A program made the translations under genes and the position numbers. A model generated the notes under the pieces. The model was not told where the DNA came from, searched no databases, and saw only the letters and a list, made by a program, of their open reading frames with translations. This document shows, piece after piece, positions 2-26,392 of a stretch of 32,000 nucleotides of DNA. Position 1 is the stretch's first letter, and each line of letters starts with the position of its first letter. The stretch covers positions 61,452 to 93,451 of the forward strand of contig NJBF01000010.1 of NCBI GenBank assembly GCA_003144275.1. The letters run 5' to 3'. The DNA is from Candidatus Heimdallarchaeota archaeon B3_Heim (GTDB lineage: Archaea > Asgardarchaeota > Heimdallarchaeia > Hodarchaeales > Hodarchaeaceae).

Positions 2-973
2 GGATCATATTCACAATTAAAAACTGCTTATTGTATCGTCAATGGAATATTGACAAGAAAGAGCGTACCTCCTGGCTTATATCGGATTGGGAATCCACGA
101 AGAAATTCACCAGTTCTGGTAACTGCAAATTACTATTGGACGGTAGATTCTGTATTTAAACTTCTTCACAAGGAGACTATTGATTGCTTTCTATTAATAG
201 TAGATTCAAATGGAATAAATGTGTGGTGTGCTGCAGGGGGAGGCCATTTTACACATACACAAATATTAGACGCAATTAGGTTATTTGATGTCAAAGAAAT
301 GATTGATCATTCTACCATAATATTACCTCAATTATCAGCAACAGGAGTAGATCGAAAGGAATTGTCTAAAGCAGGTTGGAAACCAGTTTTTGGCCCCGTA
401 GATATCAAAAATGTTAATACATTTCTAGAATCATTCACAAAAAAATCTAAAACAGCGATGGTTGAGTTTAACTTAGCATTTAGAACTCTAATGGGAATAC
501 AACATGCGTTCTTTATTAGTTGTGTTCTTTTCCTCCCTTTGTTACTGATTCTTGGTATTTTAGCGGCTATAGAGATTCCATTGACATCTTTTTGGTTTTC
601 TGTTGTATTTCAGCTGTTTATCCTCGGTTGGATTATTAATATGCTATTTATTTGGGGTTACCCAATTTTTAACTTCACATCTTCTTTCTTTAAAAAGGGC
701 CTTTCAGTAGCAATAATCAACTCAATTGTGGTTTTATTTTATCTGATAACTCAGATAAAGATCATATCTTTGTATAGCTTAATTTTCTGGGTCGCTTTGG
801 TTACTGTAGTGAGTTTATTCATAATTCTAGATCTTGCTGGGAACACCCCTTTTACTAATCACTTAGATGTTGAAAGCGATCTGACTCTGTTCATGGTACC
901 GGCATTGATTCTTTGCCTTATTGCGATATTTATTCCGTTGGTTAGTTCAGATATTAAACACTTATTATTTTGA
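2..973 (+). CDS. hgcA: HgcA-like corrinoid protein (CdhD/CFeSP-like corrinoid domain plus C-terminal transmembrane domain); probably 5'-truncated by the window edge
   Basis: Motifs VPPGLY, SPVLVTANY, GINVWCAAGGG (cap helix; Cys codon TGT 227-229), IILPQLSATG, W(K)PVFGPV, then about 5 hydrophobic helices and a GNTPFT motif like the HgcA GSTxFTS. The frame is open from position 2 (GSYSQLKTAYCIVNGI-) into the ORF-track TTG at 50, so the true start is probably upstream of the window. Confidence 0.8.
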   Translation, partial: GSYSQLKTAYCIVNGILTRKSVPPGLYRIGNPRRNSPVLVTANYYWTVDSVFKLLHKETIDCFLLIVDSNGINVWCAAGGGHFTHTQILDAIRLFDVKEMIDHSTIILPQLSATGVDRKELSKAGWKPVFGPVDIKNVNTFLESFTKKSKTAMVEFNLAFRTLMGIQHAFFISCVLFLPLLLILGILAAIEIPLTSFWFSVVFQLFILGWIINMLFIWGYPIFNFTSSFFKKGLSVAIINSIVVLFYLITQIKIISLYSLIFWVALVTVVSLFIILDLAGNTPFTNHLDVESDLTLFMVPALILCLIAIFIPLVSSDIKHLLF

Positions 974-985
974 AATGTGATAGAG

Positions 986-1252
986 ATGGTAGCTGTTATA
1001 TTTATTGAGAGGTGTAATGGATGTGCTTGGTGTCTAGATGTCTGTCCACATCAAATAATAATTTTAACTAATGATAAAAAGGCTGAGATCGTTAATGAAG
1101 AACGATGTATAGAATGTGGGGCATGTGCATTACAATGTCCAAGAGATGCAATACTAGCTCATCCACTTGGATGTGGTTGTGTTTCTAGTGTGGTACGGAA
1201 GAAGGTTCGTAAATTGCTACATCTACCTGAGAAGTCCAAGCAGTGCTGTTAG
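986..1252 (+). CDS. hgcB: HgcB-like 2x[4Fe-4S] ferredoxin
   Basis: CNGCAWCLDVCP and CIECGACALQCP cluster motifs, an extra GCGC, and a terminal CC. It lies 12 bp after the hgcA-like stop. ATG 986 is preferred over the ORF-track GTG 977. Confidence 0.8.
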   Translation: MVAVIFIERCNGCAWCLDVCPHQIIILTNDKKAEIVNEERCIECGACALQCPRDAILAHPLGCGCVSSVVRKKVRKLLHLPEKSKQCC

Positions 1253-1327
1253 TGTTTCGAATTATCAAGCTTTAAATTCGTAATTCTAATGAAATTCTTC
1301 TTAAAAAACTAAATTCTCTTAATAATC

Positions 1328-1864
1328 ATGCTGCGTAGCGAATTTCCTTTCAAAATTTCAGTAGTAAGTTCCCCTGATAAACTAGCAGAGTCTATGTTGC
1401 AAAACTACAGAGAATTAAAACCTAGCGATGATACATCGCCTCCTAGTTATGAGATAAAGATGGATGTCAGCGGCATTTCCGTTCGTCTCCATATTAAGCA
1501 AATCCAGTTAGGAAACAAAATTCCGACCTCTCGTATGAAAGAATTTCAAGGATCCATAGGAATGATATATATTTTTGAAAATAAAGATTTAACTTTGTTC
1601 AATGAAGTTAAAACTGATTATTATACCTTCGAACATCTTTATAAGACTGTGAATATACAACCTGTATTTCTAGGGGTGGGAAATAAACAAGATTCAAACG
1701 TAATGAAACACATCCACCAGACACTAAAAGAAATGAATCATAAGCTAGATGAGCTTGAACAGAACAGAAATAATTCTTTCACTCAACTTATTCGATCTGT
1801 TATCATTAAGTCTAAATCTTTTCAATCTACAACTCAAGGATCGTGTGATATTAATTTAGAATAA
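1328..1864 (+). CDS. Degenerate Rab/Ras-like small GTPase (pseudo-GTPase)
   Basis: Small-GTPase scaffold: FKISVV (beta1), DVSGISVRLHI (beta2/3), FQGSIGMIYIFE (beta4), VFLGVGNKQD (G4 intact), NNSFTQLIRSVI (alpha5). The P-loop and DxxG motifs are absent. Confidence 0.6.
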   Translation: MLRSEFPFKISVVSSPDKLAESMLQNYRELKPSDDTSPPSYEIKMDVSGISVRLHIKQIQLGNKIPTSRMKEFQGSIGMIYIFENKDLTLFNEVKTDYYTFEHLYKTVNIQPVFLGVGNKQDSNVMKHIHQTLKEMNHKLDELEQNRNNSFTQLIRSVIIKSKSFQSTTQGSCDINLE

Positions 1865-1899: not shown

Positions 1900-3039
1900 T
1901 CATAAATCTGATAAAAGCCTTCCCCAGACTCTTAATAATTGATTAATTTGCTCTTCCCGTATAAGTTCTGAATCTTCTTCATCATCACCAAAGGAAAACT
2001 TCATTGTTTCTGTTGTTTCACCAATATAAAGATCGAGTAATGCCTCAGCTGAGAATAATCTGAGTTTCGCCTCACTATGTTGTGCAATCTCTTCAATGAT
2101 TAGATCTTTGAGCCCAATGGCGATATCCTTTATTACGGAATAACCTGTTTCAAAGAACTGTTTCTGAAATTTTCGTGTTAGAAGAAGATCAAGCATGAAA
2201 GATTTATCGATTGCCATAAAAAACTCGTTACCATAGATAAAACGGAGTTTCCTTATACTAGAAGTACCAAATACAAGAAATCGAGGCTTAGAGTTAAATA
2301 ATGTTGAAAGTAATCCAATTATTGCCGCAAAATATCCTCCAAGAAGTACATCATCCTCAACATCATAAGAAAAGGGAATATCTCCCCCATCTTGATGAGA
2401 GATTAAACACCAACTCGTTGGAGAAATATAATCAGCTTTTTCTGCCTTTTTTCTTAAATAATAATGAAATAACAAACATTCCTCTAAGGATAGAACTCCA
2501 AAATTTGATCCTGATCTTCCAACAATTACTTCAACTTGGTTATTTTCAATGTAAGATGGATTGATATCAAGGATGATATTTTGGAGCTGCTTGGTTATTT
2601 TTTCTTGATCTTGCTGGTTTGCGTCTTCAATACTCGTGGCATAAAGAATTGATGCTTGACCAACTAGTACAGCGGTCATGATTTCCTTAATATTGAACGG
2701 AATCCCCTCTTTTGCTGAGATTAACATAAGAGTTGTCGCTGGATTACTAATGATGAAATAAAAATGATTATGTAGCGAGACAATAAAAATTTCTGCCGTT
2801 TTTGTTCCTGAGTACTGCGGAAGATCGAAAGTTATACTTGCAATGCCTTCACCAAATAACTCCTCTCCGAATGTGCCAAGACCTTTTAGAAAATCTACAA
2901 CAATTTGTTGAAATTCGTCTCTCGGTTCGCCGAATGTCCACTTTACTTCCTCTCCCTCAACAAAGATTGCCCAGTGTTCATGTTCTGTCATTTGCAATAT
3001 AATCCTTAATTCTGGAAAAGGAGTATCAGGCTTCTCCAA
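1900..3039 (-). CDS. Hypothetical protein with two longin/roadblock-like domains
   Basis: Two beta-beta-alpha-beta-beta-beta-alpha patterns: HWAIFV..VDFLKGLGTFGEELFGEGIASITF..FYFIISN and WCLISHQDGGDIPFSY..VLLGGYFAAIIGLLSTLFNSKPRFLVFG..FFMAID. Fold read by eye. Confidence 0.55.
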   Translation of the reverse strand: MEKPDTPFPELRIILQMTEHEHWAIFVEGEEVKWTFGEPRDEFQQIVVDFLKGLGTFGEELFGEGIASITFDLPQYSGTKTAEIFIVSLHNHFYFIISNPATTLMLISAKEGIPFNIKEIMTAVLVGQASILYATSIEDANQQDQEKITKQLQNIILDINPSYIENNQVEVIVGRSGSNFGVLSLEECLLFHYYLRKKAEKADYISPTSWCLISHQDGGDIPFSYDVEDDVLLGGYFAAIIGLLSTLFNSKPRFLVFGTSSIRKLRFIYGNEFFMAIDKSFMLDLLLTRKFQKQFFETGYSVIKDIAIGLKDLIIEEIAQHSEAKLRLFSAEALLDLYIGETTETMKFSFGDDEEDSELIREEQINQLLRVWGRLLSDL

Positions 3040-3574
3040 GCTTCGCTGTTGAGATCATTAGATTTTCTACATTATTAGGTGTAAAAAAGCCATCAAAATC
3101 TCCAAATCGTTGAATATATTCAACAATATGATTGGTTGTTCCTATTGGCATCGTGAAAATTTGTTTAATTCCTTCTGATTCACTTCCAATTACTCCATCA
3201 GATGTAAATTGCACACCACGAGATTTTTGGATTTCCACAACCTTAACTATGTCTTTCACGAGGTATGCCAGATGATGCACGCGAGAATCATATTTTTGAC
3301 AATATTTCTCTACAATAGAATCTTCATTTAACCCCTCAGAAATGACTATTACAGGCGAAGTGTCATGAAGTTTGATACATGTGGTAATGGCATTCGCTCT
3401 GAGGATTTTAAAGTTCTTAAATTCACGATAGGGTAATAAATTCATCATAGCTCGCATTGTTGGTATTCGTTCTCCCATTTTCACCCTGTAGGCAACATGA
3501 TCCAATTTAACAATCAATTTATTTAATCCTGATTCATTAAAGTTCTCTATTACCTGTTTGAGGTCATTTGACAT
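3026..3574 (-). CDS. VOC/glyoxalase-family metalloprotein, resembling the HPPD C-terminal domain
   Basis: LDHVAYRV, VHHLAYLVKDI, KQIFT and EYIQR..FDGFF.PNN give a His/His/Glu metal-ligand pattern. A purine-rich AGGAAAGG precedes the start. Confidence 0.75.
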   Translation of the reverse strand: MSNDLKQVIENFNESGLNKLIVKLDHVAYRVKMGERIPTMRAMMNLLPYREFKNFKILRANAITTCIKLHDTSPVIVISEGLNEDSIVEKYCQKYDSRVHHLAYLVKDIVKVVEIQKSRGVQFTSDGVIGSESEGIKQIFTMPIGTTNHIVEYIQRFGDFDGFFTPNNVENLMISTAKLGEA

Positions 3575-3752
3575 GATATTTCCTTTCCTAATTCTAAAGC
3601 TTCATTAGAACTTCTGAATAGAAGGTGTTTATATCTTTAATAATAGGTACGATTAACAGTTTATTAATAATTATCTATTTAATAATTTCTGGATATTTTG
3701 ATATAGTGGTTTATTGAAAAATGATAGACTAGTTTATTCACGTGGTTAAACA

Positions 3753-5486
3753 TCAGGAGTCGTTACTAATCCACCAAAGTTTTTCATAGGGTGATTCTTT
3801 GTAGGTGTTATCGATTACCGAGAATTCCGTACCGATAAACTTCATCATTGTTTTTTTGACTTCGTTGGGATTAAACGTTAAAAGAAGATTTGACTCATAC
3901 AATTTCTTGTATAAAAAAGGATCAAGTTGATTTTGGAGTTGATTATAAGGCAGTGGTTTTCCTTCTGCGATAAGAATATTCTTGACAATATCTATTATCC
4001 ATTCTTCCAACTCTTCGCTTGTAATTGGGCGGTAAATCCTTTTTTCTTCTTTTAATGGCTTTTTGAAGATGAAAAAATAGTCCCCTTGCTGAGAGCCCTC
4101 AGGTTGAAATAAACTTTTAGCCGATGCACGAGCTGGAGGATGATAAACTACTCTTTCAAACAAAAAACCTGTTTGAATTACGGATCGGTATAGGATATTA
4201 CGAATTGACAAACTTGGATTATGGAATGTTACCGTACAGTATTTTTCCCGTTTTAATATTGAATATATTTTGTGAAAAGCCTGTCTGAGAAGCTGCTCGT
4301 AAATTGCAAGGTCTTTGTTCTGTCTGGAATTAGCGATTATTTCATTACGTAAGATATCATCATACCCCTCTAGGATGTTTATCCAGGCCCCCCAAAGGTA
4401 TAATAGTTCCCCATACTGAATGGAATGTCCATATGGAGGATCAGTAATAATAAAATCTACTGAATTTTGAGGAATGAGCTCTAATTGAGTGATGTTGGAA
4501 TTTATTAAGAAAAAACTTGGTAGAGTTGCTTCGTGGAGCTCTTCAATACTGTTTACTTCTTTTATATGTTTTATCTTCAGTTTCAAGTCCTTTTTAGCCC
4601 GATATAATCCTTGCTTTCCCATAACTGCACGTTCGAATAATTGCCAAACATTTGATTCCATATAATGGGGGCAGTACCAATAGCTAGGTTGAATCCAAGA
4701 CGAACTAAAGGGGCGGGATGGCCGCACGGGGGTCATCTTTGAGGCTAAGTGAACCAAACTAGAAAAAGCAAAAAGAAATGATTCTCTAAGGTCGGATTCA
4801 CAGATCTTTTTAATCCGATCAAGTAATTTAGCAAGTGCAATCAGGTTTCTATATGTATAAAGATCATCAATGTTGTCATACCGCTCTTTTTTAAGGAAGG
4901 CTTTCCCACCTGAATAATAAAGAGGGTTTTCAGGAAACCAATAGTTCAAGAGCCCTTTAGAATTAAAAAAACTGTCTATGGAATGATTTTGTATTTCATT
5001 ATACCTATCGCGATCAAATGACTGTACCTTTTCTACTTTTTTTCCGTCTTGAGGACAGACATAACGCCTGTCGAATAACTTTGAATCTTGCCAAGAAAAA
5101 CAGGTTGCAGGTATAATATTTCCACATTTTGGACAATTTGTTGAATAAAGATTCGAAATATCATTTTTTACATCCGCTTCTATAGCTCTAAATTCTTTTA
5201 CTATTCTCATATGTGAGATATAGCGCAATGTGTTTCTCGTGACAAATATTGAAACAGGATTAATGTCAATCCCAATAGCTTTTCTTCCTAAATGCAAGGC
5301 TTCTCCAATAGTAACTCCACTTCCACAAAATGGATCTAAAACGATCTCTCCTGAATCATGAGTGTAGTGTTTGATATATTCTTGTATGAGTCGTTCTTGT
5401 TTTCGTCCAAAAAATTTGTGCATTACATACATTGACGAATGACCTTGAGAGGGAACTACTTTCTCAATAGGTGAAGAATTAGTCAT
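3753..5486 (-). CDS. Amino-group (N6-A/N4-C) DNA methyltransferase with Cys-containing insertion; no partner nuclease in the window
   Basis: HKFFGRK; SAM-binding motif I VLDPFCGSG near the N-terminus; CPKC...CP; catalytic motif IV ITDPPY in the C-terminal half. Confidence 0.88.
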   Translation of the reverse strand: MTNSSPIEKVVPSQGHSSMYVMHKFFGRKQERLIQEYIKHYTHDSGEIVLDPFCGSGVTIGEALHLGRKAIGIDINPVSIFVTRNTLRYISHMRIVKEFRAIEADVKNDISNLYSTNCPKCGNIIPATCFSWQDSKLFDRRYVCPQDGKKVEKVQSFDRDRYNEIQNHSIDSFFNSKGLLNYWFPENPLYYSGGKAFLKKERYDNIDDLYTYRNLIALAKLLDRIKKICESDLRESFLFAFSSLVHLASKMTPVRPSRPFSSSWIQPSYWYCPHYMESNVWQLFERAVMGKQGLYRAKKDLKLKIKHIKEVNSIEELHEATLPSFFLINSNITQLELIPQNSVDFIITDPPYGHSIQYGELLYLWGAWINILEGYDDILRNEIIANSRQNKDLAIYEQLLRQAFHKIYSILKREKYCTVTFHNPSLSIRNILYRSVIQTGFLFERVVYHPPARASAKSLFQPEGSQQGDYFFIFKKPLKEEKRIYRPITSEELEEWIIDIVKNILIAEGKPLPYNQLQNQLDPFLYKKLYESNLLLTFNPNEVKKTMMKFIGTEFSVIDNTYKESPYEKLWWISNDS

Positions 5487-22390: not shown

Positions 22391-23287
22391 TTATTCTTGA
22401 GTCTTGACTTCAAATCCCAAAACTGGCGAATCTAAATATTTTTGATTATAATCAGTAATTCTCATATTGATTAGCTGTAAAAATATTCGATTTCTATTAT
22501 TTGCAACAAGTGAAAAAACCGCCAATGTCCCAGAATCTAACGATTCATGAAAGTATTCCGATTTTTCCACAAAATCTTGCGTATGACTCGTGGATGCGTT
22601 GTAAATTTTGACTTTGTAAGTAACTCGGAAGAATTGAGGGTGAGGCATTTTTAAGACGAGTTTTAACAGGAAAGGTTCGTCCAGATGGGCATGCGATGGG
22701 CCCTCTAATGATAACGTAATATCTTTCCACGATACTGTGTTTTCGGCTGTTAATTCTGGTAATATTTCCGGTATCTCGAATAGTTCTCGTGTGAGTTGCT
22801 CATGAACAGAAAGAAAGTCAAATTCTTCATTAAATAGATAATCAACGGTATATGGATGAGATGTGTAAGAATCTACTCTGTAGATATTGAAACCTGGTGA
22901 TTGAGAGTTAATCTTAGTTGGATCTAATACAAGTCCAAAGGATTGGGAATGCATACTCTGATATGTTCGCTGGGTTTCTATATCTGTACCTGAAAAAAAC
23001 AAGCCTAATCCAGGATGAGTGTGAGCCCAACCTACGATTACCTCTCCTTGGTCAATTCGTTCAAAAGAAATTAAAGAAAAAACCTTTTCATAATCACTTA
23101 TATCTACAAAGACAGATGAACCGGCACCAATGGGGATAATATCAGTTACAATTATCGATTCATCGTTAATTCGACCCAAGATTAATCCAATACATTCTCT
23201 CCAATAACGTGACCTTTCTAGAGGATTAGCATTCTCGAGTGCGAACTTTAGAAATTTTTTGTAGACTTCCTTTGGAATTTGGATCAT
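22391..23287 (-). CDS. JAB1/MPN+ (JAMM) metallo-isopeptidase, Rpn11/CSN5-like, with beta-rich C-terminal domain
   Basis: ECIGLILG (catalytic Glu31) and VGWAHTHPGLGLFFSGTDIETQ (H89, H91, S99, D102), followed by FGLVLDP. Confidence 0.9.
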   Translation of the reverse strand: MIQIPKEVYKKFLKFALENANPLERSRYWRECIGLILGRINDESIIVTDIIPIGAGSSVFVDISDYEKVFSLISFERIDQGEVIVGWAHTHPGLGLFFSGTDIETQRTYQSMHSQSFGLVLDPTKINSQSPGFNIYRVDSYTSHPYTVDYLFNEEFDFLSVHEQLTRELFEIPEILPELTAENTVSWKDITLSLEGPSHAHLDEPFLLKLVLKMPHPQFFRVTYKVKIYNASTSHTQDFVEKSEYFHESLDSGTLAVFSLVANNRNRIFLQLINMRITDYNQKYLDSPVLGFEVKTQE

Positions 23288-23302: not shown

Positions 23303-24082
23303 CTAGGAAAGAATTTTAATTGCGTGAATAAGGATTCCAGAGTAAACAATTGAACGAAATTTAGGCCGCATTATATGTTTTTTTGGGTTAACATTGAAAT
23401 CTCTACGAGTAATCTCAAATACTTGCTGTAATTCAAAAGCCGAATTTTGATTGATTTTCTCAACAGTTTGTTCTACTTGTCCCCAATTAGGTACAAAGCA
23501 GATTAAATGCCCACCACCAATTAAAGTTGGAGCAATGGAATCAATTGCCTCGAAAGGGGTTGAAAAATCTAAAAAAAATGCATCAAGAAGTGGAACATTA
23601 AAAGATTCACGTATATCTTGAACTTGGAATGTAATGTTGTTTTGCAATCCAGTCATTTGGATATTTTGCTCTGCGTTGCGTAGATGCTTCTCGTTTACAT
23701 CAAAAGAGTATACATGTCCATCAGGAGCTACTGCCCAAGCAAGAAATGTAGTTAAGGCCCCCGATCCAGTACCTGCTTCCCCAACGTTCATACCATTCCC
23801 TACTCCTGCTACGCTACAAGCTACAGCACAATCGTCCGCATACAATATTTGTGTTTTTAAGGTAAAAGAACGGAGGAAGTCTCTAGGTGAAGGTTTCAAC
23901 AGCACTATTTGCCCCTTCGTTACTGAAATCACCTGTCCATATTTCAATCCGATAATCTTGTCATGATCTATTCGGCCAAGATGGGTTGATTTTTCTCCCT
24001 CGTTCTCTAGCCTGAAGATCCAAGATTTAGGTTTCCTCTCTGTGATTTCAACTGCTCTGACAATACACCCTTCTTTGAGCAT
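23303..24082 (-). CDS. trmI: tRNA (adenine-57/58-N1) methyltransferase
   Basis: TQILYADD, EAGTGSGALT, AVAPDGHVYSFD, FFLDFSTP, ICFVPNWGQV. Confidence 0.9.
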   Translation of the reverse strand: MLKEGCIVRAVEITERKPKSWIFRLENEGEKSTHLGRIDHDKIIGLKYGQVISVTKGQIVLLKPSPRDFLRSFTLKTQILYADDCAVACSVAGVGNGMNVGEAGTGSGALTTFLAWAVAPDGHVYSFDVNEKHLRNAEQNIQMTGLQNNITFQVQDIRESFNVPLLDAFFLDFSTPFEAIDSIAPTLIGGGHLICFVPNWGQVEQTVEKINQNSAFELQQVFEITRRDFNVNPKKHIMRPKFRSIVYSGILIHAIKILS

Positions 24083-24091
24083 TTTATCCTC

Positions 24092-24478
24092 TCATGCTAA
24101 ATTGGTAAAAATTGTGGGAGGTGATTTAAGATTGATAATTGGAATAAATCGAATTAAACCAGTGTGGGCGTTTTCTAAGTCTTGCTCTTTTAGAAATTGA
24201 AGAAATGTAATTTGGTTAACAGATTTTTGTAAATCATATCGGACTAATGATTGCCCTTCTTCTTCAAGCTCGGACTCTGTAGTAATAAAAAAGAGTACAG
24301 GTAATGCTCGGTAATCGAAATATCCAGGAAAAATAGCAAAAGAACTGTAAAAATATTTTTCTCCCTCTATCTTCCATTTAAAAATGGTAGAAGGTCTATC
24401 TGGACTAGAACTTGTAATTAAGCGTACAAGATCTACAAAGCTCGATAATTCAATTCCATAGGCACTCGGTAATTCCAT
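24092..24478 (-). CDS. Hypothetical protein
   Basis: 128-aa ORF tightly packed in the operon (14-bp and 9-bp gaps). No family recognised. Confidence 0.65.
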   Translation of the reverse strand: MELPSAYGIELSSFVDLVRLITSSSPDRPSTIFKWKIEGEKYFYSSFAIFPGYFDYRALPVLFFITTESELEEEGQSLVRYDLQKSVNQITFLQFLKEQDLENAHTGLIRFIPIINLKSPPTIFTNLA

Positions 24479-24492
24479 TAATCTAACCCTCT

Positions 24493-25224
24493 CTAAGTGG
24501 TCCTCTTCAGCCCAAAGAAGTTAAGCAATTGCTCTATCTCTTCCTCTGAGTCAACAATTCGTTTGTTGAATCCACGTCGATATTCTTTCTCATTTAAAGT
24601 ATCAATCATTATACTTACATTTCTTTTTCGAACAGGTGATAAATGCTGATCATATAAAACGAAAAGAGTTTTCTTCTCGAGATCAGCAACGACGTAGGCA
24701 TCCGATGGGATCATAACTGGGTCTATATGTTCTATCAATTTGTCTTTAGATACACGATAGATTCGTATAGGATTTGTACTAATTAAAGCAGTTAAGCGGG
24801 AATCTATTTCTTTCATTTTATCTTGAATAAAGTCCTCCTCTGTCTTGAATATATCAGGAGTAACATTCGATAGATATGAGAGAATAAGACCATGTGCATG
24901 TGATATAATACGTTTAAGCTGTCTCTTGAAAATAACACAGATAACTGAAGGCCTCTTATTCAGACGAGGATCTATTGTAAACATTGCATTAACAAAGAAT
25001 GCATAAGCTAAACAAAGAAATTCTTCATTTGAAGGAACAGGTAATGGTCCAAAGATATCTCCGCTAATTTCTTCCCCGATTAGTGTCATTATACGGATTG
25101 ACAGATTGAAGGCTTGATCTTCTGACACATGTTTTTCAGCGGAGTTGAAGATCACTTGAGGTCCTGCATCGGTGAAAATGCTTATTATTATTCCGACTAC
25201 TGGACTCTCTGTTTTTACGGTCAT
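24493..25224 (-). CDS. uDENN/longin-like domain fused to a gelsolin-like domain
   Basis: N-half: GIIISIFTDAGPQVIF, IFGPLPVP, LAYAFFV..IDPR..SVICVIF. C-half: IRIYRV..SDAYVVAD..LFVLY..SPVRKR..RIVDSEEE..LLNFFG. ATG 25224 is preferred over 25260. Confidence 0.55.
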   Translation of the reverse strand: MTVKTESPVVGIIISIFTDAGPQVIFNSAEKHVSEDQAFNLSIRIMTLIGEEISGDIFGPLPVPSNEEFLCLAYAFFVNAMFTIDPRLNKRPSVICVIFKRQLKRIISHAHGLILSYLSNVTPDIFKTEEDFIQDKMKEIDSRLTALISTNPIRIYRVSKDKLIEHIDPVMIPSDAYVVADLEKKTLFVLYDQHLSPVRKRNVSIMIDTLNEKEYRRGFNKRIVDSEEEIEQLLNFFGLKRTT

Positions 25225-25312
25225 CTTGAATCGCCGTTGATTAAATATTAGGATTCTCACTTAAAAATACAGCTAGACAATATCCTCAATCATCAGATTC
25301 AATTTTTATATG

Positions 25313-26392
25313 CTAAGGAATTACGTTTGTTTGGGTTGCCAGAGTCTTTGCTGCTTTTTTTGATAATCCTGTTTCGCCTAGAATCGTATAAATTGAATCC
25401 ACTTTATGAGCCTTTCGTAATGCGCTTATGATTGATTCTGAATCTACTTCTTCTTCTAAATCATCTATGTTTGTAGGACAACCCGCTGATTCTAATATTT
25501 TTATTATTTGTTCATAATCTTGACCCTGTAATTTTGCCATTAGAATTGTCCCAAGGGCGACTCGCTCTCCATGAAGAATATCAATTCCTGTTGTTTCTGA
25601 ATGTAAAGCTTGAGAAAATAAATGTTCTGAACCATACCCTACTCTTATATCATTAGAAGTTCCCATAAGGACTCCTGCGATAAGTAAAGCTTTCAATACC
25701 ACTTTTATTGCATGTTCTTGATCTAATAATGCTTCTGAAACTTGATGTTGAAATAAGGAATCTGCACTTTGTAAAACTCCCCCAACAAATCTTGAGAATT
25801 TGACAGATTTTATCCTATGAGCATACCTCCAATCCCAGATAGCAGTCATTTTTCCAACGGTGTCACCAACCCCTGCCGCTAAATATCTAGGTAAGTCAGG
25901 ATGTTGGATAATTTTATCAATATCTGCAACGATAGCAACTGGAGGCCGACTTTCTCCGATATATGTCTCTGTAGGATCATTTAAAAAGATAAAAGGAGAA
26001 GCTATTCCATCATGAGAGGTTGTGGTAGGTACAGAGATCAATTCTGTCTTTTGGTTGGCCTTAAATGAACAATATTTTCCAACATCAATTACTTTTCCTC
26101 CTCCCGCACAAATCATGATATTAGATCCAGTATCTTTCACTCTATCTTGATAGGTTATGGCCGCTTCAAGGGAAGCCTCTTCCACAATCAAGGTGTCAAA
26201 GGGGATATCTTTATCTTCTAAAATTGCATAGACTTCCTCCCCTACAATCTGACGTGTTTTGGTACCTGAAAGAACCATCACTTTAGGTTTGAATCTCAAA
26301 GAATCAATTATTTGCGGGATTTTATCAAGAATCGAATTACCAATAATGATAGATCTTGGTACGATCGATTCTAGAATCTCTGATCCCGGCAT
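25313..26392 (-). CDS. egsA: sn-glycerol-1-phosphate dehydrogenase (archaeal ether-lipid backbone)
   Basis: GGGKVIDVGK, PTTTSHDGIASP, AGVGD..KMTA..DW, GSEH, LHGERVALG. Confidence 0.92.
   Translation of the reverse strand: MPGSEILESIVPRSIIIGNSILDKIPQIIDSLRFKPKVMVLSGTKTRQIVGEEVYAILEDKDIPFDTLIVEEASLEAAITYQDRVKDTGSNIMICAGGGKVIDVGKYCSFKANQKTELISVPTTTSHDGIASPFIFLNDPTETYIGESRPPVAIVADIDKIIQHPDLPRYLAAGVGDTVGKMTAIWDWRYAHRIKSVKFSRFVGGVLQSADSLFQHQVSEALLDQEHAIKVVLKALLIAGVLMGTSNDIRVGYGSEHLFSQALHSETTGIDILHGERVALGTILMAKLQGQDYEQIIKILESAGCPTNIDDLEEEVDSESIISALRKAHKVDSIYTILGETGLSKKAAKTLATQTNVIP

Follow-up and report, generated by a model that had tools for sequence, protein, structure and literature searches.

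A predicted longin-gelsolin fusion protein of Heimdallarchaeia and its possible role in small GTPase regulation

The longin-domain GTPase-activating proteins (GAPs) folliculin (FLCN), GATOR1 and C9orf72-SMCR8 control lysosomal Rag and Arf GTPases, and gelsolins control actin; both groups are hallmarks of eukaryotic cell organization with forerunners in Asgard archaea. One open reading frame (ORF) of Candidatus Heimdallarchaeota archaeon B3_Heim raises the question of whether the two could be joined in a single small protein, and what such a protein would do. The ORF, here called P0001, lies within a 32,000-nucleotide stretch of contig NJBF01000010.1 (hereafter the window; G+C ~35%). An initial annotation, made by reading the window's letters, had proposed that it fuses a uDENN/longin domain to a gelsolin-like domain and could couple a small GTPase to actin. 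We examined this proposal by structure modelling, profile comparison, genome surveys and gene neighbourhood analysis.

Two predicted domains in P0001

The ORF was found as claimed, with orthologues in metagenome-assembled genomes of the Hodarchaeales. An upstream in-frame GTG at 25260 would extend the frame to 255 residues; because 30 aligned orthologues all start within a few residues of the equivalent of the downstream ATG, the product is likely to comprise 243 residues. The residue ranges first given for the two halves (20-160 and 164-250) had been counted from the GTG, and when they are renumbered for the 243-residue product (8-148 and 152-238) they agree almost exactly with the two domains of our model. 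The features of the gene are as follows.

24493-25224, minus strand: P0001 longin-gelsolin ORF, ATG start at 25224, TAG stop at 24493-24495, 243 residues, intact
24775-25203, minus strand: predicted longin domain, residues 8-150 (model, VIA-align, Foldseek, ESM Atlas neighbours)
25159-25164, minus strand: GP motif, G21-P22, directly before or at the start of strand beta2 (residues 21-27), preceded by D19
24964-24972, minus strand: D85-P86-R87 in the beta4-beta5 loop, with R87 as a candidate arginine finger (conservation and loop position in the model)
24952-24954, minus strand: R91, another conserved arginine, where beta5 begins or in the beta4-beta5 loop
24505-24771, minus strand: predicted single gelsolin/cofilin-fold domain, ProGel-like, residues 152-240 (VIA-align, profile, hhalign)
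24580-24636, minus strand: long helix of the predicted gelsolin fold, residues 197-215, opening with the conserved S196-P197-x3-R201

An AlphaFold2 (AF2) model of P0001 built from a 38-sequence alignment contains two domains, with a predicted local distance difference test score (pLDDT) of 86.6 and a predicted template modelling score (pTM) of 0.70. The N-terminal domain follows the longin topology, with strands at residues 9-18 and 21-27, a helix at 35-49, strands at 57-63, 66-79 and 90-100, and then three helices. When the model was compared with 48,161 Protein Data Bank (PDB) representatives by VIA-align, the best longin match was the longin domain of a Lokiarchaeota Roadblock-Longin protein (8yqg_B; Z 13.9, 141 residues aligned). 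Further matches were to C9orf72-SMCR8 (7o2w_A; Z 12.0), FLCN-FNIP2 (6nzd_H; Z 11.8), Lst4 (4zy8_C; Z 11.2), NPRL2 (8fw5_B; Z 10.6) and a chain of the SEA complex (8adl_S; Z 10.1), with generic longins (sedlin, VAMP7, sigma and zeta adaptins) at Z 8-9 and roadblock domains at Z ~7. Foldseek returned both sets of matches seen by VIA-align, with E-values of 2.6e-5 for the longin and 1.6e-3 for the gelsolin half, and the ESM Atlas neighbours of the whole model were eukaryotic NPR2, C9orf72, Folliculin and SMCR8 clusters together with Asgard longin-GTPase proteins. As modelled, the N-terminal half is a longin domain of the FLCN/NPRL2/SMCR8/C9orf72 GAP type and not a full DENN module, which bears out the longin fold, if not the whole label, of the uDENN/longin domain first suggested. 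A full DENN protein was rejected as an identity for P0001, as DENND1A aligns over the longin part only (Z 7.8) and the rest of P0001 is modelled with a gelsolin fold.

Every motif quoted in support of this domain is present (F17-x3-G21-P22, F58-G59-P60-L61-P62, D85-P86-R87 and S93-V-I-C-V97) and is invariant or nearly so in 30 orthologues. Across 41 diverse N-terminal domains, some of which are fused to other domains, G21 and D85 are conserved in all 41, G59 in 40/41, P22, P62 and R87 each in 39/41, D19 in 38/41 and R91 in 36/41; in two further alignments, R91 is an arginine in 12/12 and 29/30 sequences. A GP motif placed where the beta1-beta2 loop ends or beta2 begins has been described as specific to the GAP-type longins FLCN, NPRL2, SMCR8 and C9orf72, where it adjoins the arginine finger, and as absent from non-GAP longins (PMC12290439, 2025). 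The same study reports the pair of GP motif and arginine in Heimdallarchaeial "FLCN/SMCR8-type" longins and mentions gelsolin 0 times. Because the GP motif and the D-x-R are conserved over the 41 homologues and match that published definition, we read the domain as a GAP-type longin, in which R87 would be the equivalent of FLCN R164, NPRL2 R78 or SMCR8 R147.

The C-terminal domain of the model (residues 152-240) consists of four strands, a long helix, a strand and a short helix, an order that corresponds to the gelsolin topology. Its best gelsolin match was Thorarchaeota ProGel (7c2f_D; Z 10.1, root mean square deviation 2.7 Å, 85 of 88 residues), and adseverin (Z 9.5), gelsolin (Z 8.7) and fragmin, villin and the Loki and Heimdall 2DGel proteins (Z ~8, from 7.9) were also recovered. 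The gelsolin-like domain of Sec23 aligned with model residues 151-239 at Z 7.5. Profile comparisons pointed the same way: a profile of the 38-member family, searched against 177,635 PDB sequences, matched ProGel with an E-value of 3.1e-4 over profile positions 154-245 and villin with an E-value of 0.11. Aligned by hhalign to 49 Pfam-positive gelsolin domains from Heimdallarchaeia genomes, the C-terminal domain scored a probability of 83.6% (P-value 8.2e-6) over 77 columns in the expected register, and the controls (the N-domain profile, 20 column shuffles and a reversed alignment) all scored ≤0.3%. These results lend the gelsolin half moderate support at the level of sequence profiles, independently of the AF2 model.

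The domain departs from canonical gelsolins in several respects. None of the 38 family members matches the Pfam Gelsolin family (PF00626) at an E-value ≤0.1, and the same genome has five canonical matches at four other loci. In the hhalign register, the Trp-x-Gly is replaced by L-Y-D or I-F-E and the strand aspartate is kept (D181), and a basic V-R-K stands where canonical gelsolins have an acidic residue at the start of the helix. Because both the Trp-x-Gly and this acidic residue are lost, a type-2 Ca2+ site would not be expected, and the domain would not be calcium-regulated. The long helix is the actin-contacting element in gelsolin G1 and in ProGel (PMC7444086).

The gelsolin-like spacing without a Trp-x-Gly that had been noticed in this half is borne out by the alignments. 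The likeness to Sec23/24 that had been offered as an alternative fits less well (Z 7.5 versus 10.1 for ProGel), and the other Sec23 domains are absent from P0001. We rejected an identity as Sec23 or Sec24, of which only the gelsolin-like part aligns and which would be a multidomain protein of ~750 residues as against 243. As modelled, P0001 joins a GAP-type longin to a single gelsolin-fold domain.

Relatives, paralogues and their gene neighbours

A word-indexed search returned 47 homologues of P0001 at 53-95% identity, the named ones mostly labelled Hodarchaeales and some Hodarchaeota, Promethearchaeota or Heimdallarchaeota. When 1.84 billion cluster representatives were searched exhaustively with HMMER, 54 more distant relatives emerged, down to ~25% identity; many of these are full-length proteins with both domains, at 24-42% identity. 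Mean pairwise identity within the orthologue clade is 70% over residues 8-150 and 61% over residues 152-240, and the longin-gelsolin family is under clear purifying selection. The survey for the same architecture across Asgard genomes that the initial annotation had suggested was made with the family profile on 151 genomes. Full-length longin-plus-gelsolin matches were present in 27/27 genomes sampled from the same class (families f1 to f6), usually as several paralogues each, and outside the class in two genomes of family f8 and one of family f21. In the remaining genomes, such matches as there were took in the longin part only, except for a stand-alone ProGel-like ORF in one genome (G010); in family f13, for instance, the matched longin sits inside proteins of ~490 residues. 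This stand-alone ORF, of 102 residues and from another Asgard family, is also recovered by the C-domain profile.

The longin module of the P0001 type is found in other fusions as well, with PAS plus two GAF domains, with a Gtr1/RagA GTPase domain, with PAS alone and with a long TPR array (P0092, P0095, P0096 and P0098), P0092 and P0096 being the PAS/GAF fusions and P0095 the fusion to Gtr1/RagA. In these combinations it behaves as a mobile signalling module. NPRL2-like longin Asgard clusters of orthologous genes (asCOGs) and their fusions to two-component signalling domains were noted by Liu et al. (preprint 10.1101/2020.10.19.343400), which fits P0092 and P0096. A search with the N-domain profile for longer fused forms returned three proteins, none of them new.

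The genome that contains P0001 encodes four full-length paralogues, on contigs C10 (P0001), C11, C49 and C87, longin-only relatives on contigs C63, C48 and C76, and one actin gene (441 bits). In a maximum-likelihood tree, P0001, its orthologues and a more distant orthologue, P0049, form a well-supported clade (100/99), a separate clade contains proteins of ~340 residues with an extra C-terminal module (the C11 and C49 copies), and another holds the C87 copy. The C49 paralogue is convergent with a Gtr1/RagA GTPase gene (Pfam E-value 7.8e-37), and the C87 paralogue has Gtr1/RagA genes on both sides, one weak and one strong (E-value 4.4e-32 for the strong one). A copy of the C87 type in a genome of another family (G025) again precedes a Rag-like GTPase gene. 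The longin-only paralogue on C48 stands directly upstream of a canonical two-gelsolin gene of 411 residues, an arrangement present in six genomes of the genus. The connection between longin and gelsolin therefore exists in two forms, as a fusion and as conserved adjacency.

Several further features of these loci deserve record. Upstream of the C87 paralogue (locus L009) lie a gene for a 122-residue protein without a Pfam match (153-521, plus strand) and one for a 314-residue protein (532-1476, plus strand), which has weak Gtr1/RagA similarity (E-value 3.2e-5) and may be a degenerate GTPase. In G025, contig C4 (locus L054) carries a four-gene cluster of a Rab-like GTPase (1149-1817, minus strand), a longin-gelsolin protein (2383-3165, plus strand), a Rag-like GTPase (3450-4409, plus strand) and a 330-residue protein (4467-5459, minus strand) with a longin-like D-x-x-E-G-P motif in its C-terminal part.

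The C48 longin-only protein (L011, 1192-2115, plus strand) has 307 residues, in which a GP-motif longin is flanked by an N-terminal extension and a coiled-coil tail; in its gelsolin neighbour (L001, 1081-2316, plus strand), two canonical gelsolin domains are accompanied by a long Pro-rich linker and a further C-terminal domain. The 340-residue paralogues on C11 (L007, 1219-2259, minus strand) and C49 (L008, 1228-2247, minus strand) carry, after the gelsolin-like domain, a third domain of ~90 residues that gives a weak PCI match (E-value 0.003) and looks like a winged helix. The domain order of NPRL2 and NPRL3 is longin, middle domain, winged helix. Elsewhere in the genome, on C15 (L003, 1453-2193, plus strand), a 246-residue protein combines an N-terminal Pfam-positive gelsolin domain, a low-complexity stretch rich in Lys, Thr and Pro, and a zinc-ribbon-like end (CPxC...CxxC), an architecture that is not among ProGel, 1DGelX and 2DGel.

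The gene block around P0001

P0001 is the second gene of a co-directional block, EgsA-LG-P0002-TrmI-JAB, in which LG stands for the longin-gelsolin gene. The other features of the block are listed below.

25313-26392, minus strand: putative EgsA-type dehydrogenase of the Fe-ADH_2 family, upstream of P0001 (Pfam PF13685, E-value 2.8e-26)
25241-25270, minus strand: two A/T-rich TATA-like boxes, taatatttaa and gtatttttaa, in the 88-nucleotide gap after the EgsA gene
24092-24478, minus strand: P0002, gene for a 128-residue protein, 14 nucleotides after the P0001 stop, with a Shine-Dalgarno-like GAGAGGG motif ahead
23303-24082, minus strand: TrmI/GCD14 tRNA (m1A) methyltransferase, 9 nucleotides past P0002 (Pfam PF08704, E-value 2.2e-31)
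22391-23287, minus strand: JAB/MPN protein, last gene of the block, after a 15-nucleotide spacer (Pfam PF01398, E-value 4.2e-14)

The upstream gene, which is syntenic in all orthologue loci, would be of the glycerol-1-phosphate dehydrogenase (EgsA) type. The TATA-like boxes are a possible promoter for the genes from LG to JAB, and the spacers of 9-15 nucleotides within the block suggest co-transcription. The order EgsA-LG-P0002-TrmI-JAB is kept in six genomes of the genus, with LG identity down to 54%; at the locus of P0049, the orthologue with 42% identity, EgsA-LG-TrmI-JAB is kept without P0002. Other neighbours within 10 kb are GcvT, SHMT, a V-ATPase-E-like gene, a PUA protein, GcvH and a 642-residue ORF that, named from its sequence alone, would be beta-CASP/KH-like. 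The block looks like a housekeeping neighbourhood that says little about the function of P0001, whose paralogue clade sits here and not in a GTPase cluster. Because it is kept in such a block, this copy is predicted to be expressed constitutively, which we consider probable.

The P0002 family has a mean column identity of 71% among 28 homologues; P0002 has no Pfam match, and an NCBIfam scan gave it no meaningful family either. The family occurs in 48/121 Asgard genomes, mostly with one match each, irrespective of whether a P0001-type gene is present. As a longin or roadblock partner P0002 was rejected, since the best match of its AF2 model (pLDDT 76.6) is to one half of a glyoxalase fold (Z 5.9). 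Among its ESM Atlas neighbours, the closest in predicted shape are unnamed proteins from Bathyarchaeota and Nitrososphaerota, ~220-234 residues long (template modelling scores 0.70 and 0.61). P0002 is a conserved small Asgard protein whose model has no clear solved relative. The JAB/MPN protein, always the last gene in the EgsA-LG-TrmI-JAB block, has 298 residues, of which the ~180 after the JAB domain have no family match.

Possible functions and relation to known systems

What might a protein of this architecture do? We propose that the N-terminal longin would regulate a Rag/Gtr1- or Arf-like small GTPase, P0001 probably being the arginine-finger subunit of a longin-dimer GAP, and that the gelsolin-fold domain would be the targeting or partner-binding module of that regulator; we give this proposal an even chance. 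The link to a GTPase is indirectly supported because paralogues adjoin Gtr1/RagA genes and because P0095 fuses the longin to a Gtr1/RagA domain. A link between longin and the gelsolin/actin system is likewise supported, because a longin-only paralogue adjoins a canonical two-gelsolin gene. That the gelsolin domain of P0001 binds actin is a tentative and somewhat doubtful suggestion. The joint claim, in which the longin supplies an arginine finger as the GAP of a Rag/Arf-like GTPase and actin filaments or monomers are bound by the gelsolin half, we regard as distinctly unlikely. Of the initial reading, then, both folds have stood, and a literature search found no paper describing a longin-gelsolin fusion; the coupling of a GTPase to actin remains conjectural, and there is no GTPase gene within 10 kb of P0001.

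That gap in the neighbourhood is one of several points that weigh against the proposed role. EgsA, P0002, TrmI and JAB look like housekeeping genes, and the equivalence of R87 to the known arginine fingers is putative. P0001 matches none of Pfam PF11704 (Folliculin), PF06218 (NPR2) and PF15019 (C9orf72-like) at an E-value ≤1, and the Pfam and NCBIfam scans as a whole, Gelsolin included, gave it no family match; extended to the 38 members of the family alignment and the 41 diverse N-domains, they gave no meaningful family, the single Folliculin match among the 41 (E-value 0.15) being noise. Searched against PDB sequences, P0001 itself had no match with phmmer, and the profile of the 41 N-domains returned coiled-coil noise and no longin. 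Because there is no sequence-level link to solved longins or to Pfam models, the longin assignment rests on predicted structure and motifs. Eukaryotic longin GAPs are heterodimers with large DENN or winged-helix parts, and P0001 has no such C-terminal part; a paralogue may serve as its longin partner. As to actin, the gelsolin-like domain of Sec23 and others of its kind are not known to bind it, and for ProGel itself such binding is slight or not measurable, with a dissociation constant (Kd) of ~337 μM (PMC7444086).

The last points bear most directly on an alternative that retains the regulation of a GTPase and gives up actin: the gelsolin-fold domain may no longer touch actin and may act as an intra-complex adaptor, binding another subunit or the GTPase. 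The domain would then be comparable to the gelsolin-like domain of Sec23 or to those that follow the longin in NPRL2 and NPRL3. We consider this unlikely, if far from negligible. It would accommodate the loss of the Trp-x-Gly and of the helix-start acidic residue, the lack of a Pfam Gelsolin match in any member, the negligible actin affinity of ProGel, and the third, winged-helix-like module (weak PCI match) of the 340-residue paralogues. The ESM Atlas alignments to NPR2 clusters, which span 169-177 residues and so extend past the longin, point in the same direction, as does the structural match to the gelsolin-like domain of a Sar1 GAP, Sec23. However, ProGel and the true gelsolins (Z 8-9.5) outscore Sec23 and are the only ones that sequence profiles support, and the rigid-body alignment to NPRL2 covers the longin alone (model residues 8-150). 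The conserved adjacency of longin-only and canonical gelsolin genes argues, moreover, for a real connection from longin to an actin regulator.

Still less probable, in our estimation, is that P0001 does not regulate a GTPase at all and that its longin is a generic dimerization or adaptor platform, as in SNARE longins, sigma-adaptins and SRX. The protein would then take part in some housekeeping process together with the genes conserved around it, for example in making lipids, modifying tRNAs or processing proteins by way of JAB. The block order kept in six genomes and, minus P0002, around the 42%-identical orthologue would be expected of such a role, as would the short spacers and the lack of a nearby GTPase gene. 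Gene order within a genus can nevertheless be inherited without shared function, and P0002 is widespread regardless of a P0001-type gene. What all paralogue clades have retained, moreover, is precisely the GP motif and the loop arginine by which GAP longins are defined, and not a generic longin surface, and in sister clades there is linkage or fusion to Rag GTPases. That the two-domain reading is itself an artefact, whether of chance motif likeness or of an AF2 model too confident about an unrelated alpha/beta protein, is barely credible. In its favour, there is no curated family match and no sequence-level link from the longin half to solved longins. Against it, both structure aligners, which are independent of each other, match whole domains with scores well above background; the profile evidence for the gelsolin half does not depend on the model, and its controls are clean; the motifs fit a published definition; as a mobile module, the N-domain is found in Rag, PAS/GAF and TPR fusions; and the family is under clear purifying selection.

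If P0001 is taken as a putative GTPase regulator, its closest counterparts are FLCN (with FNIP), NPRL2 (in GATOR1) and SMCR8/C9orf72 (in CSW), with which it shares the longin fold, the GP motif before beta2 and the loop arginine, and whose association with Rag/Gtr1-family GTPases is paralleled in the genomic surroundings of its paralogues. Unlike them, it belongs to neither the Folliculin nor the NPR2 family of Pfam, has only 243 residues, and carries a predicted gelsolin fold in place of the DENN/winged-helix part. Sec23 of the COPII coat, which has a gelsolin-like domain and acts as a GAP on Sar1, an Arf-family GTPase, offers a parallel in combining a GAP-type domain (predicted in P0001) with a gelsolin fold. 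It differs in lacking a longin and in its additional zinc-finger, trunk, beta-barrel and helical domains, and it is a poorer match than the true gelsolins, with no sequence signal.

Within Asgard archaea, P0001 resembles the FLCN/SMCR8-type longins of the same phylum, which are prominent in Heimdallarchaeia and have the same GP motif and arginine (PMC12290439). In the Lokiarchaeota protein 8yqg, by contrast, the longin is fused to a roadblock domain and not to a gelsolin domain. With Thorarchaeota ProGel (7c2f) P0001 shares a single gelsolin/cofilin-fold domain of ~90 residues and its order of strands, long helix, strand and short helix, whereas its own domain is C-terminal to a longin, lacks the Trp-x-Gly and the helix-start acidic residue, and is not matched by PF00626. 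The Asgard gelsolin architectures listed by Akil et al. are ProGel, 1DGelX and 2DGel only (PMC7444086), and the longin-gelsolin protein falls outside these three. It is a new domain architecture made of domain types already known in Asgard archaea, namely gelsolins (PMC7444086) and GAP-type longins (PMC12290439, Liu et al.).

The GAP and actin roles of the family are predicted ones. As small, soluble and easily expressed proteins, its members are candidates for asking whether longin GAP chemistry, with its GP motif and arginine finger, predates eukaryotes and whether it was tied to actin. Were both GAP activity and actin binding to prove true, a single small protein family in Heimdallarchaeia would physically connect a Rag-type switch, for nutrients or membranes, with the actin cytoskeleton, a wiring that has no described eukaryotic equivalent and that could be an ancestral state of lysosome/Rag signalling.

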